64,000 nucleotides of DNA from Elusimicrobiota bacterium (GTDB lineage: Bacteria > Elusimicrobiota > Elusimicrobia > UBA1565 > UBA9628): positions 12,185 through 76,184 of the forward strand of contig JACPFR010000005.1 of NCBI GenBank assembly GCA_016182905.1, written 5' to 3'. Shown one piece after another: positions 40,078-64,000 of the stretch (position 1 is the first letter of the stretch; the number at the start of each line of letters is the position of its first letter). A model generated the notes under the pieces. The model made no database searches and was not told the origin of the DNA. It saw only the letters and a program-made list of their open reading frames with translations. Made by a program: the position numbers and the translations under genes.

Positions 40078-40112
40078 GGGCGCTCGGCCGGCGATTTGGT
40101 ATCTTGGCTCCC

Positions 40113-41381
40113 ATGGCCGCCGTCTTCGCCGCCCTGCTCTTTCTTCTCGTCCCGCCGCTGCGCGCGACGACGGTCTCGCGCATCGAGGTCGAAGGCGCGC
40201 GTACGCGGACGGAGACCATCCTCGCGCTGCTCGACACCCGGCCGGGCGAGCCGTTCGACCCGGCCGCGTGGGAGCGGGACCTGCGGCGCCTGCGCAACCT
40301 CGACTACTTCTACGACGTGGAGGGCGCGGCCGCCGAGTCCGACGGGAAGGTCGACCTGACGCTGCGGCTGCGCAACAAGCACTCCACCTTGCCGGTGTTC
40401 AAGTTCAAGCGCGGGGGAGGGTCTTCCCTCATCACCGCCGGGCTGTACGAAATCAACTTCCTCGACCGCCTGCTCGAGGTCGGCGGCCAGTACGAGCGGT
40501 TCAACGGCCAGCCCGGTTACGCGCTGTGGTTCCGCCATCCCTATTTCCTGTCGCGCCGCAACCGTCTCGGCACCGAGGTCCTTTCGCACATGATCGACCT
40601 TCCGCTGCTGACGGACAAGGGAGCGGAGGAGGCGTTCTTCTCGAACCAGGAGACGCGTTGGAACGGGCGGCTGCAGCGCGAGCTGACCGAGCGGCTCAGG
40701 CTCGGGTTGGAACTGTCCGTCTACCGCAACGAGTTCGCCCGCGACGACGCGACGCCCGCGATGGCCGCGGCCAACGACGCTTTCCTGCGCTCGAGGGGCC
40801 TTCGCTCGGGACGGACGGTCTCGCTGACGCCGAGCGTGACCGTCGGACGCCTCGACCGGGACCGCCACCACGTCGTCGGTCACGAGGGCTTCGCGCAGGC
40901 CGAGCTGGCCCATCGCGCCTTCGGCTCGGACTTCGGCTTCGCCAAAGGTCTCCTGGGCGCCGCGGGGGGGTGGAGGCCGGCGGAGCGCTGGAACCTCGTC
41001 TACCAAGCCCGTCTCGGCAGCAAGACGGGCCGGGAGTTCCAGCATAAGTTCTACCTCGGCGGGCTGGACACCGCCCGGGGCTTCCTGGACAGGCAGTTCC
41101 GCGGCGAGCACATGTGGCTGGCCAACCTGGAGGCCCGCCCGACTCTCGTGGACAAGCCGCTGTGGGTGCTGCAGGGCGCGCTGTTCACGGACCTGGCCAA
41201 GACCTGGGACGCCCGAAATTTCGGGACGGAAGGCTTCGGCGACCCGATCTTCAGCTACGGGATCGGGGCGCGGGTGATCTTCCCGCGCGTCTACCGGGCG
41301 ATCCTGCGCCTGGACGCGGCGCGCACCCAGCGGCCGGTCCGGCAGACGGGCGTGAGCCTAGGCCTGCAGCAGTTCTTCTAG
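40113..41381 (+). CDS. Omp85/BamA-family outer-membrane protein (POTRA + surface antigen barrel)
   Basis: Signal peptide MAAVFAALLFLLVPPLRA. C-terminal ...LGLQQFF aromatic terminus. Confidence 0.75.
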   Translation: MAAVFAALLFLLVPPLRATTVSRIEVEGARTRTETILALLDTRPGEPFDPAAWERDLRRLRNLDYFYDVEGAAAESDGKVDLTLRLRNKHSTLPVFKFKRGGGSSLITAGLYEINFLDRLLEVGGQYERFNGQPGYALWFRHPYFLSRRNRLGTEVLSHMIDLPLLTDKGAEEAFFSNQETRWNGRLQRELTERLRLGLELSVYRNEFARDDATPAMAAANDAFLRSRGLRSGRTVSLTPSVTVGRLDRDRHHVVGHEGFAQAELAHRAFGSDFGFAKGLLGAAGGWRPAERWNLVYQARLGSKTGREFQHKFYLGGLDTARGFLDRQFRGEHMWLANLEARPTLVDKPLWVLQGALFTDLAKTWDARNFGTEGFGDPIFSYGIGARVIFPRVYRAILRLDAARTQRPVRQTGVSLGLQQFF

Positions 41382-45772: not shown

Positions 45773-46180
45773 ATGATCAAAGAGGCGACGATCGGGACGC
45801 TCGCCAAGGCGGCGGGCGTCAACATCCAGACGGTGCGCTACTACGAGCGGCGGCGGCTGTTGACGCCGGCGCTGCGGCGCGAGTCCGGCTATCGCGTCTA
45901 TCGCGAGGACGCTCTGCAGAAGCTGCGCTTCATCAAGAACGCGCAGGAGCTTGGATTTTCCCTCGAAGAGATTCGCTCGCTGCTGCAGCTGCGCAGCGGC
46001 GGACCGGCGTCCTGCGAAAGGGTCCAGAAGAAGGCCGCCGAGCATGCTCGCGATGTCAGAGCGCGCATCGAACGGCTGCGCGCGATGGAGCGGGTACTCT
46101 CGCAACTCGTCAGGACCTGCCAGAAACGCGGCCGGACGGATGAGTGCCCTATCCTTCGCAGCCTGGAGGCCAAGAAATGA
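45773..46180 (+). CDS. merR: Hg(II)-type MerR family regulator (second copy)
   Basis: Cys81/Cys116/Cys125. HTH IGTLAKAAGVNIQTVRYYERRRLL. Confidence 0.85.
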   Translation: MIKEATIGTLAKAAGVNIQTVRYYERRRLLTPALRRESGYRVYREDALQKLRFIKNAQELGFSLEEIRSLLQLRSGGPASCERVQKKAAEHARDVRARIERLRAMERVLSQLVRTCQKRGRTDECPILRSLEAKK

Positions 46181-46863
46181 CGAGAAACATCCGCTTGCTT
46201 TATTTCAAGAACTGCCCAAACGTGGATGCGGCGAGGAGCAGTCTCCGTGCCGCGTTGGCGCAGGCGGGCCTGCCCGTCCACTGGATCGAAACCGATATCG
46301 AGGCGCCTGACTGTCCGCCTGATTTGAGGACCTTTCCTTCTCCAACCGTGCTCGTGGAAGGTCGGGATGTCTCCGGTGGAGGGCAAGCGCCGGAAGGAAC
46401 CGGGGCCTGCCGCCTGGGAGGCGCGCCCAGCGCAGAAGCAATCTCAAGGGTGCTCAATGATCACTCCTGGCTCGGCTCCGTGGCGGCTCTGCCCGCGGCC
46501 TTGATTGGTCTTCTTCCCGCGACGTTCTGTCCATTCTGCATCCCCGCGCTGGGCGGTCTGCTCGGGGCGCTGGGTCTCGGGGCCTTCGCAGGCCGCATCC
46601 TGGCACCCTTGACCCTGGCTCTCCTGGCAGTCGCCCTGGGTGGATTGGCCTTTCAATCCCGCCGAAGAGGCGATTACCGGCCTCTAATCGCCGGAGCGGC
46701 CGGCGCCGCGGCTCTCTTCGCCGGACAGTTCTTCCTCGAATCGGCGCTGTTGAAGGGTCTCGGCATCTCAGTTTTGGTCGGGTCGTCGCTTTGGAATATC
46801 ATGCCGAGAAGGCAAACTGCAGGCGGAGGACCCTGCTCCGCTTGCGCGAAAGGAGGTGAGTAA
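46177..46863 (+). CDS. MerC-like membrane metal transporter with N-terminal thioredoxin-fold domain
   Basis: GGAGG RBS, ATGA overlap. N-terminal YFKNCPNVD...DCPPD. TM1 FCPFC. C-terminal GGPCSACAKG, analogous to the MerC CAAC/CxxC layout. Confidence 0.55.
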   Translation: MTRNIRLLYFKNCPNVDAARSSLRAALAQAGLPVHWIETDIEAPDCPPDLRTFPSPTVLVEGRDVSGGGQAPEGTGACRLGGAPSAEAISRVLNDHSWLGSVAALPAALIGLLPATFCPFCIPALGGLLGALGLGAFAGRILAPLTLALLAVALGGLAFQSRRRGDYRPLIAGAAGAAALFAGQFFLESALLKGLGISVLVGSSLWNIMPRRQTAGGGPCSACAKGGE

Positions 46864-49079: not shown

Positions 49080-49204
49080 GCCGCTTCCTCCCGCGAACCG
49101 TCGCCCACGGGAGGGTGTAATCAACTGTAATTGACATCCCCGGATTCGGGGGTTATGGTTGGGGTGGCCGTTGCCGGGCGTCGTTGAGTCGCGGCAGGCC
49201 GCCG

Positions 49205-52200
49205 ATGGCTTCAACAGACGAACCGTCTTCGCCGCCGAGCAATCTTCTCCGGCCGCGCCGTCTTTTCGCGGCGGCCGCCGTATCGGCCGCGCTGTCGCTC
49301 TCGGCGCTCGCGCTTGACGCCGAAGCCGCGACGGTCTCCTGGACGGGCGCCTCCGACGGCAACTGGTTCAACGCCGCGAACTGGTCTCCAGCCCAAGTCC
49401 CGACCTCCGCCGACGACGCCGTCATCGACCTGAACGCGACGGTCTCCGCATCCGGCGGGACCTCCATCGCGTTCGCCACTCTGACTCTCGGCGACGCCGC
49501 CGGAAACTTCGCCCCGACTTTGCGCCTCTCGGCGGCCCAGAGCACCAGCGGCTCGGTGACGATCCATCGCGGCGCGAGGCTTCAGCAGGACACGAACCAG
49601 CAGATCGTCTTCGGCGCGCTGGACGTGAAGCCCGGCGGGTTGCTGACTCACACGGCGAACACGTCCGCGCGCTCGTTCCTCCTTAATCTGAGCGTGACGG
49701 GGAACTTCGACCTGCAGGCGGGGGCCACGATCGCGGCCAACGGTCAAGGCTACGCGCCCGGCGTCGGGACGCAGAACGGCTTCGGGCCGGGCGCGGGCGT
49801 GTACGGAGGCGACGGCAGCGGCGCCGGCCACGGCGGCGCGGGCGGACGCGGCAGTTCCGGGGCCCTGGGCGGCGGGGCCTACGACAACACGACGAATCCG
49901 ACGGAGCTGGGGTCGGGCGGCGGCGGAAGCTACAGCACGACGGGCGGTGCGGGCGGCGGCGCGGCGCTGATCACGGTGGGCGGGGCGTTTTCGCTCAACG
50001 GCCTCGTCAACGCCAACGGCAACGACGGCGTCCGCAGCCCCCAGGACTACGGCTCGGGCGGCGGGGCGGGCGGGACCGTCAATATCATGGCGGCGTCGTT
50101 CAGCGGCATGGGCTCGGTCCTGGCCAACGGCGGCACGGGCGGCGCGGGCGGCAACAGCCGCGGCGGCGGGGGCGGCGGCGGACGGGTCTCGATCGCCGTC
50201 ACGGGCTCGGACAGCTCGAACCTGAACCTCCAGGCCAACGCGGGCGGAAACGGCGGCTCGGGCGCCGCGAACGGCGGCGCGGGCGTGATCGCTCTCAAGG
50301 GGCCGGGCGCTTCGATCTACAGCCTGACGATCGGCGGGGCGAGTCTCGCGGCCCAATCGGCCACGCCCATCACGGGCCCTGCGCCGACGTTCGCGAGCGT
50401 CACGATCAACAACGCCGTCGTGACCTTCGACGCGGGGAGCACGGCGAGCATCGACGTCCTCGCGACGACGAACACGGTGAGCATGACGGCGGCGACGCTC
50501 TCCGTCAACGGCCTCGTCGTGACGAGCACGATGAGCCTCACGGTCGGAACGCTCGCCCTGAACGGAGGAACCCTTGAGGTCGCCAAGGGCTCAAGCCTGA
50601 AGCTGACGGCGCAATCCTCCTCCGGCGGCGACTTGGTCGTCGACGGCGGCGGCGCCTTCGTGCAGATGAACACGGCGGCGCTGAACTTCACGGCGGTGAC
50701 GGTCCTGCCCGGGGGCCTGATCACGCAAGCGGCCAATACCAACACGCGCGCGGCGGTCTTGAACCTGAACGTGAGCGGGAACTTCGACCTGCAGCCCGGC
50801 GCGACGGTCTCGGTGAACGGTTTGGGCTACGCGGGCGGGACCGCCAACGGCAGCGGCTACGGCCCAGGCGCGGGAATATACGGCGGGGACGGCAGCGGCG
50901 CCGGCCACGGCGGCGCGGGCGGACGCGGCAGCTCCGGCGCCGGCGGGGGTGCGGCCTACGACAATGTGACGAGCCCGACGGACCTGGGCTCGGGAGGCGG
51001 GAGCAGCTACAACAGCATGGCGGGCGGAGCGGGAGGTGGAGCGGCGCTGATCACCGTGGGCGGGGCCTTCTCGCTCAACGGCGTCATCAGCGCCGGCGGC
51101 AACGACGGCGTCCGCAGTCCCAATGACTACGGCTCGGGCGGCGGCGCGGGCGGGACGGTCAATATCACGGCGGCGACGTTCAATGGCACGGGCTCGATAC
51201 TGGCCAACGGCGGCGCGGGCGGCGCGGGCGGCAATCAGCGCGGCGGCGGAGGCGGGGGCGGACGGATTTCGATCGTCGTTACGGGCGCAGATAACTCGAA
51301 CCTGAATCTCCAAGCCAACGGCGGAACCGGCGGCGGCTCGGGCGCGGCGAGCGGCGGCGCGGGCGTGATCGCGCTGAAGACCTCGGGCGGGGCGAATTAC
51401 AATCTCAGCATCGGCGACTTGAACTCCGCGGCGCAGACTGGAACGGCCGTCGCCGGCTCGACTTTGGCCTTCTCCACGGTCACGCTCAACAACAGCATCG
51501 TCAGCTTCGACGCCGGCAGCACGGTCAACATCAACAATCTGATCGTGGCCGGCGCGGTGAACCTGACGGCGGCGACGCTCGCGTTCAACGGCGGAACGCT
51601 TGAGGTCAAGAGCGGCGGCACCCTGCGGCTTTCCGCCCAGGCGACATCCGGAGGGAACCTCATCGTCGACGGCGGCGGCGTCTTCCAGCAGATGAACGCC
51701 GTGCCGTTGAACTTCGTCTCGATCAACGTCTTGCCCGGAGGCTCGCTCACGCACGCGGCTAACAACGCTTTTCGTTCGGCGGTTCTCAATCTCAACGTGG
51801 CCGGAGACTTCAACCTGCAGGCGGGGGCCACGATCGCGGCCAACTCTCAGGGCTACGCGGGCGGGACCTCCAATGGCAGCGGCTACGGCCCAGGCGCGGG
51901 AATATACGGCGGGGACGGAAGCGGCGGCGGCCACGGCGGCGCGGGCGGGCGCGGCAGTTCCGGCGCCGGCGGGGGTGCGGCCTACGACAACACGACGAGC
52001 CCGACGGACCTGGGCTCGGGAGGCGGGAGCAGCTACAACGGCGCGGTGGGCGGCGCGGGCGGCGGCGCGGTACTGATCATGGTAGGCGGGACGTTCTCGC
52101 TCAACGGCGTCATCAACGCCAACGGCAACGACGGCGTCCACAGTCCCTATGACTACGGGTCGGGCGGTGGAGCGGGCGGGACGGTCAATATCACGGCGGC

Positions 52201-55200
52201 GACGTTCAACGGCACGGGCTCGATACTGGCCAACGGCGGCGTAGGCGGGGCGGGCGGCAATCAGCGCGGCGGCGGGGGCGGAGGGGGCCGGGTCTCAATC
52301 GTCGTCACGGGAGCGGACGGCTCGAACCTGAACCTTCAAGCCAACGGCGGAACGAGCGGCGGCTCGGGCGCCGCCAACGGCGGCGCGGGCGTGATCGCGC
52401 TTAAGACCACTGGCGGGGTCAACTACAGCCTCTCGATCGGCGACCTGACGTCCGTGCCGCAGACAGGCAGCGGCGTCGGCGGAGCGGCGCCGGTATTCTC
52501 GACCGTCACGCTTAACAATAGCATCGTGAATTTTGATCCTGGCAGCAACGTGACGATCAACTCGCTGGTGGTGGTCGGCGGGGCCGTCCTCTCGGGTCAC
52601 AATCTTTCCTTTGGAAGCGCCGTCCCGATCCAGGTACGCTCTGGCTCCTTAAAGGTGACGGCCAACCAATTGACGGTCCCCACCGGCTCGCCCATCGAGG
52701 TCCAAGGCGGCGGAAGTATGGCTTTTGCAGTCGCCGGCAACTCGGGCGGCGCGCTCATCGTGCGCAACGGCGGCTCTTTTCAGCAGCTCAACGCGCAAGT
52801 CCTCAGCTTCGACTCGGTCCTTGTCGAGCGGGGCGGGATGCTCACGCACGCGCCCAACAGCACGACGAGATCTTCCGTCCTGAACCTGGCCGTCAGCGGG
52901 GCCTTCGACCTGCAGGCAGGCGCCACGATCGCGTTGAACGGCTTGGGCTACGCGGGCGGGACCGCCAACGGCAGCGGCTACGGCCCAGGCGCGGGAATAT
53001 ACGGCGGGGACGGCAGCGGCGCCGGCCACGGCGGCGCGGGCGGGCGCGGCAGTTCCGGCGCCGGCGGGGGTGCGGCCTATGACAACGTGACGAATCCGAT
53101 GGACCTGGGCTCGGGCGGCGGGAGCAGCTACAACAGCATGGCGGGCGGAGCGGGCGGCGGCGCGGCGATGATCACCGTGGGCGGGGCATTCTCGCTCAAT
53201 GGCGTCATCAACGCCGGCGGCAACGACGGCGTCCGCAGTCCCTATGACTACGGGTCGGGCGGCGGGGCCGGCGGGACGGTCAATATCACGGCCGCGACGT
53301 TCAACGGCACGGGCTCGATACTGGCCAACGGCGGTGCGGGCGGAGCGGGCGGCAATCAGCGCGGCGGCGGGGGCGCTGGCGGACGCATCGCGATCGCGGT
53401 GACGGGGGCGGACGGTTCGACCCTGACGCTGCAGGCCAACAGCGCGGTCGGCGGCGGCTCGGGCGCCGCGAACGGCGGCGCGGGCGTGATCGCGCGCAAG
53501 GCCCCGAGCGCATCCAGCTACAACCTGACTATCGGCGATCCGAGCGTCACGCCCCAGTCGGCGACGCCGCTTGCGGGGGCTTCTCCGACGTTCGCGAACC
53601 TGACGATCAACAACGGTGTCGTGACCTTCGACGCGGGCAGCACGGCGACGGTGACCGCCCTCGTGGTCAAGGGGACGGCCAGCGTGACGGCGGCGACACT
53701 GGCGCCGGGTACTTTGGAAGTGGCGAGCGGGGCGGTGCTGAAGTTGATGGCGCTGGCGACGAGCGGCGGTCTGCAGGTGGACGGCGGCGGGACGTTCGTT
53801 CAGATGAACACGGCGACGCTCGGCTTTGCATCGGTGTCGGCGCTGCCCGGGAGCGTGCTGACCCACAACATCAACTCCAACACGCGCGCGGCGATCTTGA
53901 ACATGAACGTGGTCGGCGACTTCGACCTGCAGGCGGGCGCGGCGATCGCGTTGAACGGCTTGGGCTACGCGGGCGGGACCGCCAACGGCAGCGGCTTCGG
54001 CCCGGGCGCGGGGATATACGGCGGCGACGGCAGCGGCGCCGGCCATGGCGGCGCGGGCGGGCGCGGCAGTTCCGGCGCCGGCGGCGGCGCGGCTTACGAC
54101 AACGCGACGAGCCCGACGGACCTGGGCTCGGGCGGCGGGAGCAGCTACAACAGCATGGCGGGCGGAGCGGGCGGCGGGGCGGCGCTGATCACCGTGGGCG
54201 GGGCGCTCTCGCTCAACGGCACGATCAACGCCAACGGCGTCAACGGCGCGCGCAGTCCGAATGACTACGGCTCGGGCGGCGGCGCGGGCGGGACGGTTAA
54301 CCTGACGGCGGCCGCGTTCAACGGCTCGGGCACGATCTCGGCGACTGGAGGTTCAGGCGGCCCCGGCGGCAATCAGCGCGGCGGCGGAGGCGGCGGCGGC
54401 CGTGTCGCGCTCGCGGGCTGCAACGCCAACAAGGTGACGAGCGGCGTGAGCGGCGGCGGCGCGGGAGGCTCCAGCGCGGTGGGCGGAAGCACCGGGACCG
54501 TCAACCCCACGATCCCCGCCGGCTGCCCCAGCGCGCCGCCCGCCCCGGTCAATCTCGCGGTCTCATCTGCCGGCGAAGACGCGTCCGGCAGCACCTTCAT
54601 CACGGCGACCTGGGACCCGGCCCCGTCTGCCCTCTCCTATACATTGCAGGCGTCCACCGCCGCCGACTTCAGCGGCATCGTCCATGCCGCGACGAGCGCG
54701 GCGACGACGGCGACCATCCTCGGGGTGACGCCGAACGCGACCTACTTCCTGCAGGTCGCGGCCTACAATATCGTCGGCTTCTCCGCTTTCTCATCCGCCG
54801 TGACGACGCGCACGCCCGCGGACCTCACGTCGCCACAACCGCCGTCGCTCGTGAGCGCCTCAGGCGGGCCTGGGGGCCGCATCTCGTTGTCGTGGCAGGC
54901 TGCGGCGGCCGGCGAGCAGACGACTTCCTTCAACCTCTACCGCGCGACCGAGGCCTACACCTCGACTACGGGCCTGACCTCGATCCAACTCCATGCGGCC
55001 GCGACCTTCTACACGGACGTCCCGCCCACCGATGGGACTTACTTCTACGCCGTGGCGGGACTTGACCCTTCCTTCAACGAGAGCGGGATATCGAACATGC
55101 TCTCCGCGCAGTCCCTGCACGCGGGACCGGCCGCGCCCAGCCTCGCCGCCGTCTTCAGCGCGGCGCAGAAGCATATCGCTCTGTCGTGGACGGCCTCGAC

Positions 55201-58200
55201 CGGCACGGTCGTCGGCTATAACGTCTACCGCGCGACTTTCTCGGCGTCGAGCGTCGCCGGCCGCGCGCCGCTGCTGAGCGGAACAACCGCGACGGCCTTC
55301 GTCGACGCCCCGTCGATCGCGTCGGACTCGACGTACTACTACCTGGTCACGGCCGTAGACCCCGTTGGAAACGAGGGCGCGCCCTCCAACCAGTCCGCCG
55401 TCGCCTTCGACGTTCACTCGCCGGCGATCACGATCACCGGCGTCTCGAACGGCCAGTACGCGAGCGCGAACCTGACCCCGGCCGTGACGATCGCGGACTT
55501 CAGCCCGTATGTCGCCACCGTCAGCCTCAACGGCCAACCCTTCGCGGGCGGCGTGACGCTGACCTTGCCCGGCACCTACTTCCTGTCGGTCGCGGCGTCC
55601 GACGTGTTCGCCAACGCGAGCTCGGCGACCGCCTCCTTCACGATCGACAAGGCCACGCCGACTTTCGTCCTGCTCTCGCCGCAAAACGGCCTGATCACGA
55701 ACCAGAACGTGCCCGTCTCCTACCAAGTCTCCGACGACCTCACGCCCGCCGCCCAGATCGTCGTCAAGGACGAGCTCGGCATCGTGGTTCCATCGTCCTA
55801 CACGATCACGATCGAGGGCGCGCGCAACCTGACTTTGACGGCCCGCGACCTGGCCGGCAACGCGGCTTCGGCGAGCTCCGTCTTCATCCTCGACAAGACG
55901 CCGCCGGTGGTCGTCTCGGACCTGCGCGTGACGGCCAAGAACCCCGCCGCCGGACAGGCGACGTTGGCCTGGACCTCCCCGCACGACGCGCTGAGCGGTG
56001 TGGCGGGCTACATCGTCAAGGCCGCGGGCTACCCGATAGACGCCGCGAACTTCGACGCGGCGCCGACCGTCGCGGTCTCCACGACGCCGCGCGCGGAGGG
56101 TGCCGCCGAGCAGTTCGTCGTCACGGTCCCCACGATCTCGACCGTCTACTTCGTGATGAGGTCGTCCGACGAGGCGGGCAATCTCTCGGCGATCTCCAAC
56201 ATCGCCTTCTGGGACCTCAACGGACCCGTCCTCTCGGGCCTCAATCCCGCTCCCGGGGGCGTCGTCTCCCGTCCGGCGAACGTGACGGTTCAAGCCGGCG
56301 ACCTCACCGGCGTAGCGTGGGCCGCGTTCGCGGTGGACGGCGTGGTCCTTTCCACGATCACGACCGCGCCTTACAGCTTCCTTTGGAACACCCTCGCCTA
56401 CGCCGACGGGACGCACTCGGTCGCGTTCAACGCCCTGGACGTCCTGGGAAACGCCTCTTCGCTCTCAGCCGCTTATACCCTCGCCTATCAGCCGCCGCCG
56501 ACGCCGGTCGTGACCGCGCCGAGCGCGAACTTCACCACGTTCACCGCGACGGTCACGGTCGCGGGCACGGCGGAGCCGGGGACCACCGTCCAGGTGCTCA
56601 TCGACGGCTTCATCCTGGCTTCGGCCCTGACCAGCTCCACCGGAAGTTTCCAGACCGTCGTGACCCTTCCCGCGCAGGGCAGCCCGCTCATGACCGTGCT
56701 CGCGAGCGACTTCAAGGGCGCCGGCACACCCATCTCGCCTATCGTCATCAACTACAACCTGACGCCGCCCGGCGTCCCGGGGAATTTCTCCGCGGCTTCC
56801 TTGCCCGCGGGACGGGTGCGGCTGGCCTGGGACGCGCCGGCGGGCAAGGTGCCTTCGTTCTACCGGATCTATCGAAGCAGCGATGCGGCGGCTTTCTCCC
56901 CGGGCGTCGTCCCCGCCGCGGCGCTGCTGATCAAGGACTCGCTGAACGCGCGGACCTACGACGACCTGCCCGCGCAGGACGGCGTCTATCACTACGCAGT
57001 CACCGCGCTCGACGCGAGCTTGAACCAGAGCGGCGCCTCGGACTCCTCGAGCGCGGTCTCCGACCGCGCCGTCCCGACCGCGGCCTTGACCTTCCTCGAC
57101 GGCGTCCCGCCGTTCGGACCGGGCGCGAAGCGCCTCCAGCTCTCGCTCTCCAAGGTGCTGGCGTCGCCTCCGCTCCTGCTGTTCCGGCCCTTCACCCAGA
57201 CGCCGCTCAGCCTCGCGCTCAGCGCCTCAAGCCCCACGGTCTGGCTCGGCACGCTCACCGTGACCTCGGCCATGAACTCGGGAGTGGGCGCCTTCTCCTT
57301 CCAGGGCTCCGACTTCGTCGGGAACGTGGGGACGAGCCTCACCGCGGGAGCGACGGCGCTCCTCGACCTAGCGGGCCCCTCAGGCTCCATCGCGCTGGTG
57401 CCCGCGTCCCCGGTCAAGGCGGGGACAGTTGCCCTGAGCCTGAACTTGACGGAGCCCGTCCCCGTCGCGCCGCAGTTGGCCTACGTCACAGCCTCAGGCT
57501 CGACCGTGCCCGTGACTCTCTCCGGCGCCGGTACCGCGTGGACGGGAACGCTCACGATCGTCCCCGGCTCCGACGGGCCCGCATCCTTCGCCTTCAGCGC
57601 GACGGACGCATTGGGCAACGTCGGCGCGAGCTTGACCGCGGGCGGGAGTTTCGTCATCTTGACCGAGGCTCCCGGCGCGCCGCTGTTCCTGCGCGCGATC
57701 CCGCAGAAGGCGGGCGCGGTGCGGGTGACCTGGAGCGCGCCGGTCGGCGGGACGCCGGCCTCCTACAACGTCTACCGCGACTCGGTCAGGATCTCGTCCG
57801 GCGTCGCGCCGCTGTCCGACGGCAGCGGCCTGTTCGTCGACAATCCCGCGGACGGCCCTTACGTCTACGCGGCCAGTGCCGTCGATGCCGCGGGCAACGA
57901 GAGCCCCCTGTCCACGGCCGTCTCCGCGACCGCCAAGTCCTCCTCTCCGGCCGCTCCGACGGCCTCGACCGCGACCTTCTCGTCGTTCGGCCACATCGAG
58001 GTGAGCTGGGAGGCGGGCAGCGCGGACTCGACGCTCTACCGTATCCACCGGACGAGCGCGGCGGGAGGCTCCTTCGCGAGCGCCTCCTTCAGCGCGCTCG
58101 CCAGCACTCCGCCGTTCGTCGATACGCCGCCCCAGAACGCGCGCTACTTCTACTACATCACGGCCCTGGACTCCGCGGGCAACGAGTCCAGCCCGTCTCA

Positions 58201-61200
58201 GGCGGCCGAGATCGTCTGGGACCGCGCCCCGCCCTCGATCGTGATCGCGGGCGTGCAGAACGGCGTCCTCTACAACCTGGACGTGGCCCCGGTGTTTACC
58301 GCGACGGGCTCGGCCACGGCCGTCACATTGAGCGCGACCCTGAACGCGGCGCCGTTCGTCTCCGGCTCCACCGTGAGCGCAGAGGGGGACCATACTCTGA
58401 CGGTGAACGCCGTCAACCAGTCCGCCGCCGGCTCGACGACGACGGTCCACTTCACGATCGACAAGACCTTCCCGGCCGTCTCGATCACGGGCATCCCGTC
58501 GGGGACCTCGGTCTCGCCGGTCCTGCCTCAGGTCACGGTGACCGACCTGCACCTGGGCGCGGTGACCTTGACCCTCGACGGCGGCTCGTATCCGCAGGGA
58601 ACGCCCATCAGCGCCAACGGCGCCCACGTGTTCACGGTGACCGCCGCGGACCTGGCCGGGAACGTCTCCGTCTCGAGCAAGACCTTCACTTTGAACCTCC
58701 CTCCGTCCGCGCCGGCCAACTTCACGCTCACGGGCGCGGAAGGCGCGGGCGCGGCCTTCACCTGGGAGAGCCCCGCCTCTGGCCTCGCCGGCTACCGCTT
58801 CTACAAGGACGGAGTGCTGCAGTCCCAGGGCCTGCTGAGCGGGCTGCAGTTCCAAGACGCCGCCTTCGCTCTGGGAACCGCCCACGTCTACGAGGTCCTG
58901 GCGGTGGACGCCTCGGGCCAGGACGGCGCCCGCGCCCGGATCAGCGTGCCCGCCGTCGACTTCACGCTCGACTCCTACGGCGTCAACTTGAACGGCGTCC
59001 AGGCGCTGACGCGCGGCTTCTTCGACACGGTGCGCTTCCGGGTTAGTAACACCGGCGCGCAAAGCGCGCCGGTGGGGCCGGCGGCCATCGAACTCGTCTC
59101 GGCGGGAGCGACGGTATTCAGCGGACAGGCGCCGTCGGTTTCCGTGCCCGCGGGGGGAGCCGTCTTGATGCCCGCGGTCGTGGCCGTGACGCCGGACATC
59201 GCGGACGCGCCGACTTTGCGCGCGACGCTGACTTTGCCCGTCGGTCTCGGCAGCCGGGCGACGGTGAAGAAGACCTTCCCGCTCGCCGCCCGCACGCCGC
59301 TGGGCTCGCCGGTCGAGCTCTTCGCGGGCCCCATGATCTTCGGCGCCAACGCCGCGGTGCAGGTCAAGTTCAACAACAAGGGCTCGGCGCCCATGGAGGT
59401 CCGCACGGCCATCAACAGCGACGTGTCGGTCTCGCTCGCGACGCCGCAGGGCACGGTGCTCTCGCAGGCGACGTTGTCCCAGACGGGCAACGGCGCGCAG
59501 GCGGGTCCCACCGGCTATTTCGTGTCGATCGCGCCCGGCGCGAGCTTCCTCTTCGACGGGGTTCAAGTTTTCGTGCCCGAGGCGCTGGGAAGCGGCGCGG
59601 TGCTGGCGGCTTCGATCAGCCGGACCTTCAACGGCTTGATCGGAGACACGATAGACGGCACGCGCGCCTTCGACGCCTCTCAGACGATCACTGGCGTCGC
59701 GGCGCCCGCCTACTCCGCCACGATCTCGCCGGACCGGCCGGTGTACGACCAGGGCCCGACCGTGATCCTCTCAGGCGAAGCCCGGGACACGGCCGACGCG
59801 CTCGTGCCCGGCGCGACCGTCCAGGTCGGCGTCTCGGTGCAGGGCTTCGTTCGCAGCCTCAGCGCGAAGACCGACGAGACCGGGCATTATTCCATCCCGT
59901 TCAACCCGGCCCCGACCGAGGCCGGCACCTACACGCTATGGGCCTCGAACCCGGCTGTGGTGAGCCGCGTTCCCCAGTCGAGCTTCACCATCGCCGGCTT
60001 CTCGTTCCAGTACACAAGCTTCAACGCCGCCGTGGTCCGCAACTCGACCTTGCCGTTCACCGTCTCGCTGCTCAACACCGGACAAACCGCCTTGACCGAT
60101 CTGACGGCGCTGGTCATCTCCACCTCGGGCGTCGCCGGGGTCGGCCTGACGCTGAACCCGGCGAGCGTTCCTTCTTCCTTGGCGGGCGGGCAGAGCGCGG
60201 CGCTCTCCTTCTCCGCCTCCGCGACGGCGGACGCGCCGCTGGGACCGGTGTCGTTCACCGTGGAGGCCCGGGAGTCCAACGGCTTCGTGCGCCGGATGCC
60301 GGTGACCTTGAACGTCTCGGCCGGCGCGCCCGGCCCTTCCGCCGACCCCCAGGCCTTCACCATCGGCATGAACGCCGGCCAGACCCGCGTCCAGACGGTC
60401 GTGCTCAAGAACCTGGGCACCTCGGCGTGGACCGGGGTCTCCGTCAGTTCCTCGGCCCTGAGTTGGGTGGCGGTCCAGGGCAACAACACTCCCAGCGCCG
60501 CGTACACTTTGGGCGACGTTCCCGCCGGCGGCCAGGTCCAGTTCAACCTCGTCGTGGCGCCGCCCCTGGGTCTTGCCAGCCAGGCCTTGGCGCTCAATCC
60601 TCTGGTCACGGTGAACTCGACCAATGCCCCGGCCCTTCCTGTCAACGCGCTCATCACCATCACGGCCGGCACCGACGGCGGGATCATCTACAACGTCATC
60701 AACGCGGACAAGCCCCGCAACCAGTTCGGCAGCGGCGTCCCCGTTCCGGGCGCTCAGGTCCAGCTCGTCAGCCTGGACATCGCGGGCCTGAGCTTCAGTG
60801 CGGTCGTCGATGCAAACAGCGTCGCTCGCTTCAACAGCGTCCCCGCGGGCCGCTACAACTTGACGGCCAAGGCCGCGGGCTTCAGCGACTTCCTCGGCAC
60901 CGAGACCATCCAGCCGGGCGTCACCAACACCCGCGAGGTCCTGCTCCTGACCGAGATGGTCAGCTACGTCTGGTCCGTCACGCCGACCACGATCATCGAC
61001 CAGTACACGATGAAGCTCTCCATGACCTTCAAGACCGACGTCCCGGCGCCGGCGGTCATCATCTCGCCCGCCGTATTCAACTTCAATTTGGAGTCGGAAG
61101 GCAGCGTCGACGCGCAGTTGACCGTGAGCAATCAGGGCCTCATCTCGGCGTTCGACGTCGCGCTCCTGCCCAAGATCGACCATCCGCATCTCACGATCGA

Positions 61201-62953
61201 CATGCCTTACTCGACGATCGCCGAGCTCAAAGCGGGGCAGACGATCACCGTTCCGATTCGCGTCACGCTTCACTCAGATCCGTTGGTCTGTTACAAAGGC
61301 AAAATCGTCGGCTCCGGCACGTATCTCGCAGCCTGCGGCACCGCCGTGAATGCTGTATGGCCAGGACCTGAGTTCAACGCGAACTGCGGCGTTACTCCGA
61401 GCCTTATCGTGCCCGAGACGACCACGGGCCCCGCTCTTCCGATCCCCGATATCGCCGGCGTCCTTCCCGCCGCCCCGCTCGTCACCGCGGCGGTCGTGAA
61501 CGTGATCGCCGCCGCCGCTCCGGCCGTCACCGGCTGCTCCTGCTCGATGAAGATCACGGGCGACGATAGGCTGCCGCTCGGAACCGGCACGAAGACCTAT
61601 ACCGCGACGCTCAATGCCGACGCCAGCTGTCCGTCCTGCTCCCGCCCGTGCGCTCTCGGCACCGAGTGGATTGCGTCGGGCGTGGAGATCGTGAGCAAGA
61701 GCGGCTGCGTCGTCGAGGTGCGGCCCACGAGCGCAAGCGGTGGAACGCTGAACGTCACGAACGGAGCTCCGAACTTCTGCAAGTCGGACATGAAGAAGAT
61801 ATCGGTCTGCGAGCCGATCATCACGCGAAGCTCAGAGCTTACCGGCATCAGTGGGGGACCGATTACGCTGACCGCTGCACTTCCATCGGGGTGCCAGTCG
61901 CAGAGCATTTCATGGTCTCCGGCTTCTTCTCCTCAGGGAACGCTCGACCCGACGACCGGACCTTCAACTACCTTTACACCGTCGTCGACTTCCGGCGAAC
62001 TAGTGATTACTGCACACGATACCACTGCAGGTTCGACTCTGGCGACCAGCACTACGGTTTTAGTCGCGCAATTAGTCATTGTGCATCCTACTGGTGATCC
62101 CAGGGTTCCCTCACAACGATCAACCACAAACCAATTCGTATTTACTGGCGCAAACGGTATTGTCCCTATCCGAGTCGAAGCTGATATCCAGCCAGCAAGT
62201 GCACGTGCAATTGTGGATGGAACCCAGATAAAGTGGCATTTGAACAGAATTCCATCGGGGCCGGCGCTCTCGTGGAACAATGCGTGGCCCGCGGAACCTA
62301 CTGCGGGCATGACTTACAATGCAGTTGCGACTCTCACCGGTTATCCAACCAATAATTCAGATTTCGGAAACTTCGGGATGATTGCCCAGGTCTTAAGCGG
62401 AGGTGCCGTTAGCTCGCAGTCGACTCCAATACAATTGTTCTTTGATGCTCTAACTGTTGCGGCTGGGCGAACTGTTCCGAATTGGTTTGTTTACTGGACC
62501 AACGCACTCGGATTTACAGGACAGTTTTCATTTGACCCGAGCCTGGCAACCAACGATACGACCGTAACATCCGCAACCACCTGGACGATAAGAATTGCAC
62601 CAAGCGCTTATTGGCCGGACGTAGCGGGCAACCCTCCGACCGGACATAGATACATAGATGGCTTCAGAGCCAGCATCTATCATGAATTCTGGCATCGCGA
62701 CCACCGTGTGCATAACTTTACGGTTCACGGCGCTTGGACTCCGCCCATCACCGAGGATATTGATGGCGATGGCATTTGTGATCGCGAACCGACTGATCCG
62801 CCAGGTCATAACGGGGGCTACGAAGCGATGATTGGAAGTAACCCGAACTCCGCCGACAGCACCGAGGTCGGTGCTGATTGGGCAGAGGCGCATGGAACGT
62901 ACGGAAACGAGGGACTCGACTGGGCGCATCCGGGTAGTCAATGGGAGCCATGA
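49205..62953 (+). CDS. Giant secreted surface protein (~4,583 aa): five ~350-aa Gly-rich tandem repeats, then FN3, Ig-like, CARDB-like and CarboxypepD_reg-like domains, and a Cys-rich C-terminus with HExxH
   Basis: ATG at 49205 (the ORF-track TTG at 49184 is less likely). N-terminus with RRLF plus a hydrophobic stretch. Continuous ORF of 13.7 kb. Domain calls from recurring ...YRA...Y.Y.V.A.D..GN.S FN3 motifs and the ARFNSVPAGRYNL motif. Confidence 0.8.
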   Translation: MASTDEPSSPPSNLLRPRRLFAAAAVSAALSLSALALDAEAATVSWTGASDGNWFNAANWSPAQVPTSADDAVIDLNATVSASGGTSIAFATLTLGDAAGNFAPTLRLSAAQSTSGSVTIHRGARLQQDTNQQIVFGALDVKPGGLLTHTANTSARSFLLNLSVTGNFDLQAGATIAANGQGYAPGVGTQNGFGPGAGVYGGDGSGAGHGGAGGRGSSGALGGGAYDNTTNPTELGSGGGGSYSTTGGAGGGAALITVGGAFSLNGLVNANGNDGVRSPQDYGSGGGAGGTVNIMAASFSGMGSVLANGGTGGAGGNSRGGGGGGGRVSIAVTGSDSSNLNLQANAGGNGGSGAANGGAGVIALKGPGASIYSLTIGGASLAAQSATPITGPAPTFASVTINNAVVTFDAGSTASIDVLATTNTVSMTAATLSVNGLVVTSTMSLTVGTLALNGGTLEVAKGSSLKLTAQSSSGGDLVVDGGGAFVQMNTAALNFTAVTVLPGGLITQAANTNTRAAVLNLNVSGNFDLQPGATVSVNGLGYAGGTANGSGYGPGAGIYGGDGSGAGHGGAGGRGSSGAGGGAAYDNVTSPTDLGSGGGSSYNSMAGGAGGGAALITVGGAFSLNGVISAGGNDGVRSPNDYGSGGGAGGTVNITAATFNGTGSILANGGAGGAGGNQRGGGGGGGRISIVVTGADNSNLNLQANGGTGGGSGAASGGAGVIALKTSGGANYNLSIGDLNSAAQTGTAVAGSTLAFSTVTLNNSIVSFDAGSTVNINNLIVAGAVNLTAATLAFNGGTLEVKSGGTLRLSAQATSGGNLIVDGGGVFQQMNAVPLNFVSINVLPGGSLTHAANNAFRSAVLNLNVAGDFNLQAGATIAANSQGYAGGTSNGSGYGPGAGIYGGDGSGGGHGGAGGRGSSGAGGGAAYDNTTSPTDLGSGGGSSYNGAVGGAGGGAVLIMVGGTFSLNGVINANGNDGVHSPYDYGSGGGAGGTVNITAATFNGTGSILANGGVGGAGGNQRGGGGGGGRVSIVVTGADGSNLNLQANGGTSGGSGAANGGAGVIALKTTGGVNYSLSIGDLTSVPQTGSGVGGAAPVFSTVTLNNSIVNFDPGSNVTINSLVVVGGAVLSGHNLSFGSAVPIQVRSGSLKVTANQLTVPTGSPIEVQGGGSMAFAVAGNSGGALIVRNGGSFQQLNAQVLSFDSVLVERGGMLTHAPNSTTRSSVLNLAVSGAFDLQAGATIALNGLGYAGGTANGSGYGPGAGIYGGDGSGAGHGGAGGRGSSGAGGGAAYDNVTNPMDLGSGGGSSYNSMAGGAGGGAAMITVGGAFSLNGVINAGGNDGVRSPYDYGSGGGAGGTVNITAATFNGTGSILANGGAGGAGGNQRGGGGAGGRIAIAVTGADGSTLTLQANSAVGGGSGAANGGAGVIARKAPSASSYNLTIGDPSVTPQSATPLAGASPTFANLTINNGVVTFDAGSTATVTALVVKGTASVTAATLAPGTLEVASGAVLKLMALATSGGLQVDGGGTFVQMNTATLGFASVSALPGSVLTHNINSNTRAAILNMNVVGDFDLQAGAAIALNGLGYAGGTANGSGFGPGAGIYGGDGSGAGHGGAGGRGSSGAGGGAAYDNATSPTDLGSGGGSSYNSMAGGAGGGAALITVGGALSLNGTINANGVNGARSPNDYGSGGGAGGTVNLTAAAFNGSGTISATGGSGGPGGNQRGGGGGGGRVALAGCNANKVTSGVSGGGAGGSSAVGGSTGTVNPTIPAGCPSAPPAPVNLAVSSAGEDASGSTFITATWDPAPSALSYTLQASTAADFSGIVHAATSAATTATILGVTPNATYFLQVAAYNIVGFSAFSSAVTTRTPADLTSPQPPSLVSASGGPGGRISLSWQAAAAGEQTTSFNLYRATEAYTSTTGLTSIQLHAAATFYTDVPPTDGTYFYAVAGLDPSFNESGISNMLSAQSLHAGPAAPSLAAVFSAAQKHIALSWTASTGTVVGYNVYRATFSASSVAGRAPLLSGTTATAFVDAPSIASDSTYYYLVTAVDPVGNEGAPSNQSAVAFDVHSPAITITGVSNGQYASANLTPAVTIADFSPYVATVSLNGQPFAGGVTLTLPGTYFLSVAASDVFANASSATASFTIDKATPTFVLLSPQNGLITNQNVPVSYQVSDDLTPAAQIVVKDELGIVVPSSYTITIEGARNLTLTARDLAGNAASASSVFILDKTPPVVVSDLRVTAKNPAAGQATLAWTSPHDALSGVAGYIVKAAGYPIDAANFDAAPTVAVSTTPRAEGAAEQFVVTVPTISTVYFVMRSSDEAGNLSAISNIAFWDLNGPVLSGLNPAPGGVVSRPANVTVQAGDLTGVAWAAFAVDGVVLSTITTAPYSFLWNTLAYADGTHSVAFNALDVLGNASSLSAAYTLAYQPPPTPVVTAPSANFTTFTATVTVAGTAEPGTTVQVLIDGFILASALTSSTGSFQTVVTLPAQGSPLMTVLASDFKGAGTPISPIVINYNLTPPGVPGNFSAASLPAGRVRLAWDAPAGKVPSFYRIYRSSDAAAFSPGVVPAAALLIKDSLNARTYDDLPAQDGVYHYAVTALDASLNQSGASDSSSAVSDRAVPTAALTFLDGVPPFGPGAKRLQLSLSKVLASPPLLLFRPFTQTPLSLALSASSPTVWLGTLTVTSAMNSGVGAFSFQGSDFVGNVGTSLTAGATALLDLAGPSGSIALVPASPVKAGTVALSLNLTEPVPVAPQLAYVTASGSTVPVTLSGAGTAWTGTLTIVPGSDGPASFAFSATDALGNVGASLTAGGSFVILTEAPGAPLFLRAIPQKAGAVRVTWSAPVGGTPASYNVYRDSVRISSGVAPLSDGSGLFVDNPADGPYVYAASAVDAAGNESPLSTAVSATAKSSSPAAPTASTATFSSFGHIEVSWEAGSADSTLYRIHRTSAAGGSFASASFSALASTPPFVDTPPQNARYFYYITALDSAGNESSPSQAAEIVWDRAPPSIVIAGVQNGVLYNLDVAPVFTATGSATAVTLSATLNAAPFVSGSTVSAEGDHTLTVNAVNQSAAGSTTTVHFTIDKTFPAVSITGIPSGTSVSPVLPQVTVTDLHLGAVTLTLDGGSYPQGTPISANGAHVFTVTAADLAGNVSVSSKTFTLNLPPSAPANFTLTGAEGAGAAFTWESPASGLAGYRFYKDGVLQSQGLLSGLQFQDAAFALGTAHVYEVLAVDASGQDGARARISVPAVDFTLDSYGVNLNGVQALTRGFFDTVRFRVSNTGAQSAPVGPAAIELVSAGATVFSGQAPSVSVPAGGAVLMPAVVAVTPDIADAPTLRATLTLPVGLGSRATVKKTFPLAARTPLGSPVELFAGPMIFGANAAVQVKFNNKGSAPMEVRTAINSDVSVSLATPQGTVLSQATLSQTGNGAQAGPTGYFVSIAPGASFLFDGVQVFVPEALGSGAVLAASISRTFNGLIGDTIDGTRAFDASQTITGVAAPAYSATISPDRPVYDQGPTVILSGEARDTADALVPGATVQVGVSVQGFVRSLSAKTDETGHYSIPFNPAPTEAGTYTLWASNPAVVSRVPQSSFTIAGFSFQYTSFNAAVVRNSTLPFTVSLLNTGQTALTDLTALVISTSGVAGVGLTLNPASVPSSLAGGQSAALSFSASATADAPLGPVSFTVEARESNGFVRRMPVTLNVSAGAPGPSADPQAFTIGMNAGQTRVQTVVLKNLGTSAWTGVSVSSSALSWVAVQGNNTPSAAYTLGDVPAGGQVQFNLVVAPPLGLASQALALNPLVTVNSTNAPALPVNALITITAGTDGGIIYNVINADKPRNQFGSGVPVPGAQVQLVSLDIAGLSFSAVVDANSVARFNSVPAGRYNLTAKAAGFSDFLGTETIQPGVTNTREVLLLTEMVSYVWSVTPTTIIDQYTMKLSMTFKTDVPAPAVIISPAVFNFNLESEGSVDAQLTVSNQGLISAFDVALLPKIDHPHLTIDMPYSTIAELKAGQTITVPIRVTLHSDPLVCYKGKIVGSGTYLAACGTAVNAVWPGPEFNANCGVTPSLIVPETTTGPALPIPDIAGVLPAAPLVTAAVVNVIAAAAPAVTGCSCSMKITGDDRLPLGTGTKTYTATLNADASCPSCSRPCALGTEWIASGVEIVSKSGCVVEVRPTSASGGTLNVTNGAPNFCKSDMKKISVCEPIITRSSELTGISGGPITLTAALPSGCQSQSISWSPASSPQGTLDPTTGPSTTFTPSSTSGELVITAHDTTAGSTLATSTTVLVAQLVIVHPTGDPRVPSQRSTTNQFVFTGANGIVPIRVEADIQPASARAIVDGTQIKWHLNRIPSGPALSWNNAWPAEPTAGMTYNAVATLTGYPTNNSDFGNFGMIAQVLSGGAVSSQSTPIQLFFDALTVAAGRTVPNWFVYWTNALGFTGQFSFDPSLATNDTTVTSATTWTIRIAPSAYWPDVAGNPPTGHRYIDGFRASIYHEFWHRDHRVHNFTVHGAWTPPITEDIDGDGICDREPTDPPGHNGGYEAMIGSNPNSADSTEVGADWAEAHGTYGNEGLDWAHPGSQWEP
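49560..54420 (+). repeat. Five tandem direct repeats (~1,020-1,080 bp each) inside the giant gene
   Basis: Recurring DNA/protein blocks NLNVSGNFDLQ.GAT...NG.GYAGGTANGSGYGPGAGIYGGDGSGAGHGGAGGRGSSGAGGGAAYDN.T.PTDLGSGGGSSYN... starting near 49.68, 50.76, 51.79, 52.87 and 53.89 kb. Confidence 0.8.
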
Positions 62954-62954
62954 A

Positions 62955-63896
62955 ATGAATTCACGCCTTAGCTGTTTCATATTCTTAGGCCTTGCAATCG
63001 GCCACATGCCGGCAGCAGCCGAAGGGAAGCTCGATCATGAATCGTCTTTGATGTCCCATGCCCGAAAGATTCAAAATTTTGAAACCGCGCTGAAGACCGG
63101 CGCAGGCTGTTCCGCCGCATTGCGAATTGTCCTCAAGGACACCGACCCTTACTCCCGTCGAGTTGCAGTCGAGCGTTGTGGGGATCAGCTTGATGCTCGC
63201 GACGAGGACCTGCTAAAGAAGGACGGCTCTTGGATATTGCAGGACGCTCTGCGATCTCGTCGTGTTAAATCGCAACTCGCCAAGCTGCCGCCAGAAGCGC
63301 GTTGGAAATATTTTCAGCGAATTACTCGAGTGGCTCCGCAAAGAATCCCCGATACGGCCGAGATGTTCATAAATCAAGGCTGGGCTAAATCCATCGACGA
63401 TGTGCATCTGCGGATACCGGAAGCGACGAACAAAACCGAGAGACTTCGCGACAAAGCACGTGCCGCGTCGAAACTCAAGGCGCTATCATCTTCGGCTGAA
63501 ATCGCCGAAGCACTACGTATGCTCGGTGATCCAGAATCTCCTGCGGCTGCGGAGGAAGCCTTGCGCAGCCTTGTCACGCTTGGAGGACCTGCGCTTCAAG
63601 CCGCCCTCTCGGGACTAAAAGCCGCAACCCCCCGGCCCGAACCTCCTCCCTGGACTCCCGAGCATACAGCCTTTCAGCGCCGCATGAAGCTAATTATGGC
63701 TTTGCCTGACGTCCGCTCAGTTCCAGTGCTTGAAGAAATTCAGTCTTCCGGATCTGCGTTCGTGCGCCGCGAAACGTCGCGAGCTTTGAAATGGGTTCGA
63801 TCTGGGACCAGGTATCCGGTTGACCACGAGTCCATCTTGCTTCTCTCTGAGGATGATAGATCACCGTTATTGCCGGAGGCTGATGAACCCCCGTAG
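62955..63896 (+). CDS. Secreted hypothetical protein (low-GC), candidate partner of the giant protein C-terminal module
   Basis: ATG 2 nt after the giant-gene stop. Signal peptide MNSRLSCFIFLGLAIGHMPAAA. ~47% GC versus ~69% for the window. Confidence 0.55.
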   Translation: MNSRLSCFIFLGLAIGHMPAAAEGKLDHESSLMSHARKIQNFETALKTGAGCSAALRIVLKDTDPYSRRVAVERCGDQLDARDEDLLKKDGSWILQDALRSRRVKSQLAKLPPEARWKYFQRITRVAPQRIPDTAEMFINQGWAKSIDDVHLRIPEATNKTERLRDKARAASKLKALSSSAEIAEALRMLGDPESPAAAEEALRSLVTLGGPALQAALSGLKAATPRPEPPPWTPEHTAFQRRMKLIMALPDVRSVPVLEEIQSSGSAFVRRETSRALKWVRSGTRYPVDHESILLLSEDDRSPLLPEADEPP

Positions 63897-64000
63897 GCTA
63901 ATGAGCGCGTCTCTCACAACTCCGTCGCCTGCCGTCAGGCTAGCGACAATGGGAACGGTGCTGTTCACCCTCCTTTGTGTCGGCATTGCCACAGCGGCCG

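Follow-up and report, generated by a model that had tools for sequence, protein, structure and literature searches.

The C-terminal end of a giant open reading frame (ORF) in an Elusimicrobiota metagenome-assembled genome (MAG), together with the gene that follows it, is best read as a polymorphic-toxin-type toxin/immunity cassette grafted onto a giant surface protein, a reading to which we assign a probability of roughly 70%. The stretch of DNA analysed here (the window) comprises 64,000 nt of assembly GCA_016182905.1 (contig JACPFR010000005.1, positions 12,185 to 76,184 of the forward strand), and comes from a phylum that occurs in groundwater, among other habitats, and for which most knowledge is metagenomic. 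Within the window the giant ORF occupies positions 49184–62953 on the + strand, with a likely start at ATG 49205 resulting in a protein of 4,582 aa. The exchangeable unit would span from ~61.83–61.89 kb to 63.9 kb and encode an Ig-like linker domain, an Ig-like ‘pre-toxin’ beta-sandwich, a zincin-like domain of ~170 residues and a translationally coupled, exported HEAT-like protein. A weaker claim, that the giant protein ends in a zincin-like tip which can be exchanged and which is matched by a cognate exported binding protein, is very probably correct. A first-pass annotation of the window had proposed a horizontally swapped toxin/immunity-type cassette at this position; the alternative tails, co-varying partner gene, strain-shared unit and orphan arrays in the wider family described below support that proposal, toxicity itself being a prediction.

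Base composition changes abruptly within the giant ORF. A maximum-likelihood change point in GC content at third codon positions (GC3) was located at codon 4214 (nt 61826), with GC3 of 0.896 before and 0.505 after this point. When calculated in 450-nt blocks, GC3 was 0.83–0.95 up to nt 61783 and ~ 0.50–0.57 thereafter, a step rather than a drift, and the uniform composition that the first-pass annotation had named as refuting evidence was not observed. Bulk GC content was 66.7% for window positions 1–61825, 54.1% for the tail (61826–62953, + strand, codons 4214–4589 and the stop) and 55.2% for the next gene. The low-GC part of the giant ORF thus consists of its last 376 codons, low GC persists through the next gene, and 300-nt windows across the low-GC region gave values of 0.49–0.57; elsewhere in the window, the lowest GC content in any 2-kb segment was 60.8% (mean 66.8, sd 3.0). 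The drop in GC reported earlier for the tail and the next gene is real, its level being 54–55% and not 47–50%. The closest HEFWH-bearing relatives of the tail reside on contigs with 32–44% GC, which is consistent with import of the cassette from lower-GC donors. A separate dip to 0.60 at window positions 60800–61400, inside the high-GC stalk where GC3 stays at 0.88–1.0, is a matter of amino-acid composition and not of foreign origin, and is distinct from the break at 61826.

A common stalk with differing C-terminal domains was found among orthologues of the giant protein. Five homologues were found for the 515 residues preceding the break. Similarity to the window protein stopped at aa 4199 for P0158 (54% identity; the last residue homologous to any orthologue), at aa 4083 for P0159 (51% identity) and at aa 4052 for P0160 (43% identity), with the GC3 change point (aa 4214) located 15 to 162 residues past these end points. 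Beyond the stalk, P0158 has a tail of 280 aa with the motif SRHIYGLAADI and a match to Peptidase_M15_3 (E 0.0024), the sole PDB sequence match of this tail being Zn D-Ala-D-Ala carboxypeptidase 1lbu (E 0.016); the tail of P0159 carries DUF6531 and RHS repeats (E 1.7e-6 and 7.5e-12, respectively); and that of P0160 is Cys-rich, with a CNKHDACY motif and a weak match to PLA2G12 (E 0.0055). In the locus of P0158 (L005), the next gene codes for a 340-aa HEAT_2 protein with a signal peptide, and in the locus of P0160 (L006) the tail is followed by a gene for a 153-aa hydrophobic protein, apparently with multiple transmembrane segments as judged from its translation, and then by a rhodanese gene. 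GC3 falls on entering the tails in both loci (from 0.56–0.76 to 0.32–0.46 in L005 and from 0.72–0.90 to 0.32–0.46 in L006), and downstream genes had values of 0.34–0.36. Conservation of the tail in orthologous giant proteins lacking a downstream partner, the other outcome named in advance as evidence against a cassette, did not occur: the orthologues carry other tails, and a partner is present.

The tail of the window protein can be divided into two parts, an Ig-like beta-sandwich (62063..62446, + strand), which immediately precedes the catalytic half and serves as a conserved homology arm at other loci, and a zincin-like half (62447..62950, + strand) consisting of a helix, a small sheet, a long HExxH-bearing helix and two further helices, the last of which opens with a near-invariant Glu. 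Both motifs noted earlier, HExxH and DxDGDGxCD, are present. The former is HEFWH (codons 62681–62695, + strand), contained within IYHEFWHRDHRVH; the latter is DIDGDGICD (62756–62782, + strand), a Ca-binding-like motif of the TSP3 type with a sub-cutoff match to Pfam TSP3_bac (E 0.045) and with residue D234 conserved in at least 90% of the family. Multiple Cys pairs had also been ascribed to the low-GC tail, which in fact has only two Cys residues (4237 and 4532); the pairs lie upstream of the break, in the high-GC end of the stalk, where 10 Cys residues are found at aa 4051–4209.

An alignment of 96 family members was used for structure prediction in AlphaFold2, yielding a model with a mean predicted local distance difference test score (pLDDT) of 96.2 and a predicted template modelling score (pTM) of 0.91, which superseded a poor earlier model built from 9 sequences (pLDDT 58). 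In this model the Ig-like beta-sandwich takes up residues 1–128 and is followed by a helix (140–149), a small sheet (165–178; strands 165–168 and 174–178), a long helix (197–222) and helices 252–257 and 267–276. The invariant HExxH on an active-site helix that defines zincins was present in the alignment and model, with H207, E208 and H211 found in all 96 sequences and placed on predicted helix 197–222. The remaining invariant positions are N140, Y144, D286, W287 and G291, and those conserved in at least 90% of sequences include P139, W141, W145, D234 and E268. The last of these (codon 62864..62866, + strand), near-invariant and placed at the start of helix 267–276, is a candidate for the third zinc ligand. 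The motif set of the domain can be written as PNWxxYW … HExxH … E … DWxxPGxQ, with DWxxPGxQ as the terminal motif. We infer that the tail is an active Zn-metallopeptidase.

Family size was assessed by two types of searches. A word-indexed search of 5.8 billion proteins returned eight relatives of the tail, and a profile-based one of 1.84 billion cluster representatives (50% identity) returned at least 1,241 at E ≤ 1e-3, 721 at E ≤ 1e-10 and 95 at E ≤ 1e-30. Among the best 150 of the 1,241 matches, the domain mostly lies at the extreme C-terminus, stopping no more than a few residues short of it, in proteins of 120–2,242 aa. Members of the family were found in Elusimicrobiota, Acidobacteriota, Armatimonadota and many uncultivated lineages, and the N-terminal scaffolds of long members (n = 33) included PKD, Big, beta-helix, TSP3 and transglutaminase-core domains (the latter in 7/33). 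We could assign the tail to no curated family, and its combination with exported HEAT proteins is apparently uncatalogued. In Pfam at E ≤ 1, TSP3_bac was the sole match to the tail, with no curated family for the catalytic half; a scan of NCBIfam gave no match, and Pfam detected no domain in the corresponding tails of eight further family members. No significant profile match to curated peptidase and toxin families was obtained, including the Pfam Tox-MPTase models (Tox-MPTase1 was not among them). Searching the PDB sequences with a profile of the 96-sequence alignment yielded no matches at E ≤ 10, and a Foldseek search with the tail model, in which the Ig-like and catalytic halves were submitted together, matched Ig domains only.

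The gene directly downstream (62955..63896, + strand) encodes a 313-aa alpha-helical, HEAT-like protein with a signal-peptide-like N-terminus (MNSRLSCFIFLGLAIGHMPAAA|EG), which is a putative immunity protein or inhibitor. Its ATG (62955) is separated from the TGA of the giant ORF (62951–62953) by 1 nt, and not 2 nt as given in the first-pass annotation. The deposited gene model, MBI2384691.1, is 296 aa long, starts at Met18 and consequently lacks the signal peptide. The sequence favours the 313-aa start, because a Shine-Dalgarno-like GGGAG is located 7 nt upstream of it and the N-terminus is conserved in two related loci (L002 and L003, see below), in one of which (L003) Met18 is replaced by Leu; the deposited start is probably 17 codons too short. 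These data agree with the earlier claim of a 313-aa protein with a signal peptide of its own.

Pairing of the tail domain with an exported HEAT-like protein is a general feature of the family. Across the loci encoding the tail domain (67 metagenomic and 3 genomic), most of those with sufficient downstream sequence had an ORF on the same strand starting from 47 nt before to 64 nt after the stop codon, with larger gaps in six. Matches to HEAT_2 at E ≤ 0.01 were obtained for 28/47 non-redundant downstream proteins (best E 2.3e-47) and matches to HEAT_PBS for 16/47, and 41/47 had a signal-peptide-like hydrophobic N-terminus by the Kyte-Doolittle criterion. MAGs of Thermoanaerobaculia and of Armatimonadota (one each) show the same pairing. 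Homologues of the window’s 313-aa protein followed the tails in L011 (E 3e-38), L014 (E 5e-26) and L004 (E 1e-12). Since the partners of tails with an HE[FQ]WH-class motif are mutually homologous (E 3e-38 to 1e-5) and their relatedness to the partners of other tail subclasses was not detectable, tail subclass and partner family co-vary. Divergence is faster in the partner (27% identity) than in the tails (52% identity for the same comparison). The partner gene would confer immunity, its product binding and blocking the tail. In the Armatimonadota MAG (MAG056, locus L009), adjoining paralogues at 3060–4457 and 5530–6951 were observed with a common FlgD_ig-like N-terminal region and different C-terminal domains, one of the HExxH family with a HEAT partner and the other an unassigned domain followed by a different gene of 272 aa; a second copy of the 272-aa gene type and another HEAT gene lie further downstream.

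Comparison of strains across the junction suggests that the tail and partner travel together. One metagenomic locus (L002, ERZ1292625) was 90.6% identical over window positions 61649–63954, including 177 nt of stalk, and a second one (L003, SRR22388204) was 80.7% identical; both shared with the window the junction as well as the gene downstream of it. Identity between L002 and the window was 72–83% upstream of ~ 61889 and 87–97% from there to ~ 63.87 kb, corresponding to 53/240 mismatches in the stalk flank (78% identity) and 153/2008 in the cassette (92% identity; p = 1e-10 in Fisher test). Because identity of the cassette exceeds that of its flank, the tail and the next gene can be treated as a single unit whose common ancestry is younger than that of the adjoining stalk. 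A disruption of the ORF in L002, suggested by gene calls, was rejected, as the translation is intact across the junction.

Past this unit, gene content differs between strains. A Logan contig (L001) overlapping the window with 99.96% identity over 4,698 nt shows that GC remains at 47–59% for ~ 3.2 kb beyond the window end. A return to high GC had been placed at ~ 63.9 kb by the first-pass annotation; that coordinate marks instead the end of the strain-conserved unit. The full low-GC island is ~ 5.26 kb long with 53.6% GC, and contains, past the partner gene, five more small genes on the + strand before host-like GC resumes at a rhodanese gene. The strain-variable array begins with a 60-aa ORF (length in L001; window 63901..64000, + strand, continuing at L001 4599–4763). 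Two other island genes, of 237 and 269 aa, are HEAT_2-like (E ~ 1e-5), and two, of 283 and 182 aa, code for proteins with signal-like N-termini and no Pfam match. L001 positions 4653–7064 (2.4 kb) are missing from L002, and in L003 a homologue of the 283-aa gene follows the partner directly. A tandem-rhodanese-type gene forms the right-hand neighbour of the variable island (L001 7782–8300, L002 3139–3870, L006 3256–3966); since it bounds the island in L001 and L002 as well as in the distant L006, the loci can be regarded as syntenic. In L006, another large surface-protein gene was seen after the rhodanese gene. Two further observations concern the N-termini of island genes: the 60-aa ORF and the 182-aa gene (L001 6424–6972) share the end of the signal peptide (..AAGGVNP..; 50% identity over 28 aa in BLASTP, E 3.5e-5), and the L001 and L002 versions of the 269-aa gene differ solely within the first ~ 28 residues. 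Together they suggest rearrangements at the signal-peptide-coding segments of these genes.

Orphan cassettes with homology arms were identified at the level of the family. Scanning of all fetched loci with a hidden Markov model of the family revealed several contigs carrying at least two modules. In L020, a full HEFWH tail and a partner homologous to that of the window are followed by a 5′-truncated tail, the first 185 nt of which are 97.3% identical to the first tail before it diverges to an HENQH version with a different signal-peptide-bearing HEAT partner; a third module consists of a 99-aa tail fragment and a third partner. L007 contains a full and a 5′-truncated module, each with a HEAT partner of its own and with an arm of 76% identity, and tandem modules with arms of 86% and 79% identity are present in L004 and L025, respectively. 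Since the arm in L004 and L020 lies in the Ig-like domain, this domain acts as a conserved pre-toxin segment. One orphan candidate, a 209-aa ORF at L004 87–716, was dropped because it is open to the contig start and represents a gene cut by the contig end. Orphan tail/partner pairs, which the first-pass annotation had suggested looking for elsewhere in the genome, were thus found on other contigs of the family, and not in the window or its island. A tblastn search of the window for further copies of the tail or partner gave none.

In the mechanism that we favour, the giant protein would be exported by the Sec pathway and displayed on the cell surface, where its tip would act as a Zn-metallopeptidase attacking an envelope or periplasmic target of neighbouring bacteria. 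The partner would bind and block the tip in the periplasm of the producer, and the four to five extra exported proteins encoded downstream (two of them HEAT-like) may represent additional or orphan (spare) immunity genes. Recombination at the conserved end of the stalk or at the Ig-like arm would install new tail/partner pairs.

This arrangement can be compared with several known systems. Sec-dependent polymorphic toxins, N-terminal scaffolds with inactive transglutaminase domains, zincin toxin tails and the Imm-HEAT immunity family were described by Zhang, de Souza, Anantharaman, Iyer & Aravind 2012 (PMC3482391). The locus resembles that class in having a signal-peptide-bearing multidomain protein with a conserved N-terminal part or stalk, a variable C-terminal domain and an immunity-like gene directly downstream, and the likeness extends to orphan cassettes, heterogeneous poly-immunity-like arrays and, in several members of the tail family, transglutaminase-core N-termini; zincin tails and HEAT-repeat immunity both figure in that study. 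It differs in its stalk, which is made of Gly-rich repeats and fn3/Ig arrays instead of RHS or filamentous-haemagglutinin (FHA) repeats, in having no catalogued pre-toxin or releasing peptidase domain, and in a tail matched only weakly, by TSP3_bac, at Pfam E ≤ 1. No immunity protein is given for Tox-MPTase1-5 in the same study, where HEAT-repeat immunity is listed only with Ntox34 and Tox-REase-7 (PMC3482391), whereas the tails studied here are systematically paired with exported HEAT proteins. Regarding trafficking modules, only the signal-like N-terminal segment was found, which fits the Sec-dependent class. Its genomic features, namely tails that vary, a downstream gene that co-varies with them and orphans that have arms, place the locus in that class; a recognised delivery module was not found at the locus.

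Displacement of the tail and immunity gene at a conserved junction, compositionally deviant cassettes and 5′-truncated orphan tails in which a homology arm has been retained (185 nt at 97% identity in L020) are shared with Rhs and CdiA-CT/CdiI systems, and the orthologous stalk of P0159 even runs into DUF6531 and RHS repeats. Unlike the proteins of contact-dependent growth inhibition (CDI) systems, the giant protein has no two-partner secretion (TPS) domain, FHA repeats or VENN motif and no adjacent CdiB, the Omp85/POTRA gene 8 kb upstream being unlinked; unlike Rhs proteins, it has no YD/RHS repeats or PAAR domain. An experimental precedent is the zinc metallopeptidase domain at the C-terminus of VgrG2b, whose toxicity in the periplasm is neutralised by the cognate immunity protein PA0261 (Wood et al. 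2019, PMC6899460), but VgrG2b is delivered by a type VI secretion system (T6SS). Another parallel, that of an exported zinc protease with an exported proteinaceous inhibitor encoded beside it, is provided by serralysin-type metalloproteases. These have operon-encoded periplasmic inhibitors (AprA/AprI, Inh); they form conserved single pairs, however, and not polymorphic C-terminal cassettes, and their inhibitors are small beta-barrels rather than HEAT repeats.

Several observations weigh against a toxin/immunity cassette. The giant protein has no TPS, PAAR/VgrG, LXG, RHS or HINT domain and no VENN motif, nor any catalogued trafficking, pre-toxin or releasing domain, and no secretion genes were found among the neighbouring window genes. 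RHS was found in 0/33 long family members scanned, many members are short stand-alone secreted proteins, and an exported inhibitor would be equally expected for a secreted protease that is not a toxin. In addition, the M15 and PLA2 assignments of the alternative tails rest on sub-threshold matches, the window’s own partner matches HEAT_2 below threshold (E 0.0019, 18.9 bits versus a cutoff of 27.7), and the window’s island contains extra immunity-like genes and no orphan tail fragment. A rival reading is a mobile module that encodes a secreted or surface zinc protease for nutrition, matrix remodelling or adhesin function and a dedicated periplasmic inhibitor that, as in serralysin-type systems, protects the producer during export only. 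The many stand-alone secreted members and the adhesin-like, PKD, Big and transglutaminase scaffolds without toxin trafficking domains are in line with such a role, as are the exported partner, suited to protection in transit, and the lack of delivery machinery near the giant gene. We nevertheless regard it as unlikely, as it leaves unexplained the unrelated M15-like, PLA2-like and RHS tails on orthologous stalks, each with a downstream gene of its own, the 5′-truncated orphan tail/partner arrays with 97% arms, the strain-variable run of extra exported HEAT-like genes and the excess of between-strain identity that is limited to the cassette. The alternative offered by the first-pass annotation itself, a horizontally acquired peptidase tip of an adhesin, fits the anatomy of the protein and accounts less well for the same alternative tails and orphan arrays.

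A non-catalytic tip for binding or adhesion, in which HExxH is kept for a metal-dependent structure and the HEAT protein serves as a chaperone or docking partner, is less probable still. Neither structure nor sequence searches linked the tail to a characterised peptidase family, and an Ig-like domain with a Ca-type loop is typical of adhesins; set against this, H, E and H are invariant in 96/96 aligned sequences and accompanied by a near-invariant Glu on a downstream helix, metal binding alone needs no invariant catalytic Glu, and the order of secondary-structure elements is that of the minimal zincin layout of PMC3482391. An assembly chimera, in which a high-GC genome and a low-GC contig had been fused within the ORF, might be suspected from the abruptness of the break and from the source being a MAG. 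This explanation was rejected and has a negligible probability: separate assemblies of other samples span the same junction (90.6% identity in L002 and 80.7% in L003), the reading frame is kept, the break falls at a domain boundary, and in L001 and L002 host-like sequence resumes beyond the island, at the rhodanese gene.

If the toxin/immunity reading is correct, a widespread ‘dark’ C-terminal domain without an entry in Pfam, NCBIfam or PDB would acquire a name, a motif set and a class of cognate partners. Exported HEAT-repeat proteins would then rank as a common immunity class for envelope-acting effectors, and cassette exchange would be seen to act on giant adhesin-like proteins of Elusimicrobiota with none of the canonical delivery hallmarks of type V, VI or VII secretion systems (T5SS, T6SS, T7SS) or Rhs. 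The protease/inhibitor pair would be directly testable, and GC3 change points within very long ORFs can flag such cassettes. A bolder version, which we put forward tentatively as a possibility, is that the Ig-zincin tail and exported HEAT partner define an antibacterial effector/immunity family that is large (at least 1,241 clusters) and absent from catalogues, and that delivery in this organism depends on contact and takes a route not described before, in which a Sec-exported fibre of ~ 4,600 residues has its tip swapped among M15-like, PLA2-like, RHS and zincin modules, following a CdiA-like logic on an unrelated scaffold and with no known secretion partner.

The remainder of the giant protein consists of repetitive and Ig-like regions. 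A signal-like segment at the N-terminus (window 49205–49340) contains RPRRLF, which is twin-arginine-like, although a twin-arginine (Tat) substrate of 4,582 aa seems implausible. It is followed by five tandem Gly-rich units of ~ 340–365 aa each (aa ~ 40–1750, window 49205–54400), counted by motif recurrence: copies of GHGGAGGRGSSG start at aa 215, 574, 916, 1281 and 1620, and copies of YGSGGGAGGTVN at aa 289, 649, 991, 1356 and 1695. These units had no Pfam match and look like a beta-helix-type fibre. A Pfam scan of the giant protein returned fn3, Big_13 and Big_7 only, in fn3/Big Ig-like arrays. The conserved end of the stalk, a CarboxypepD_reg-like region and a Cys-rich Ig-like domain (60281..61780, + strand), is common to orthologues with other tails. 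Between these two lies an Ala/Val/Pro-rich hydrophobic stretch (..LPIPDIAGVLPAAPLVTAAVVNVIAAAAPAVTG.., window ~ 61430–61520, aa ~ 4083–4113), which may be a linker or a recombination-prone spacer; homology to P0159 stops where it begins (aa 4083) and that to P0160 ~ 30 residues earlier (aa 4052).

Directly upstream of the giant gene is a response regulator (MBI2384689.1), and other upstream genes include CorA, ETF, the Omp85/POTRA protein 8 kb away and mercury-resistance-like genes. A mercuric-reductase-like gene (NCBI naming; window 37672–39189), a MerC-like membrane protein (46144–46863) and the Omp85/POTRA protein (39924–41381) had no evident link to the cassette.

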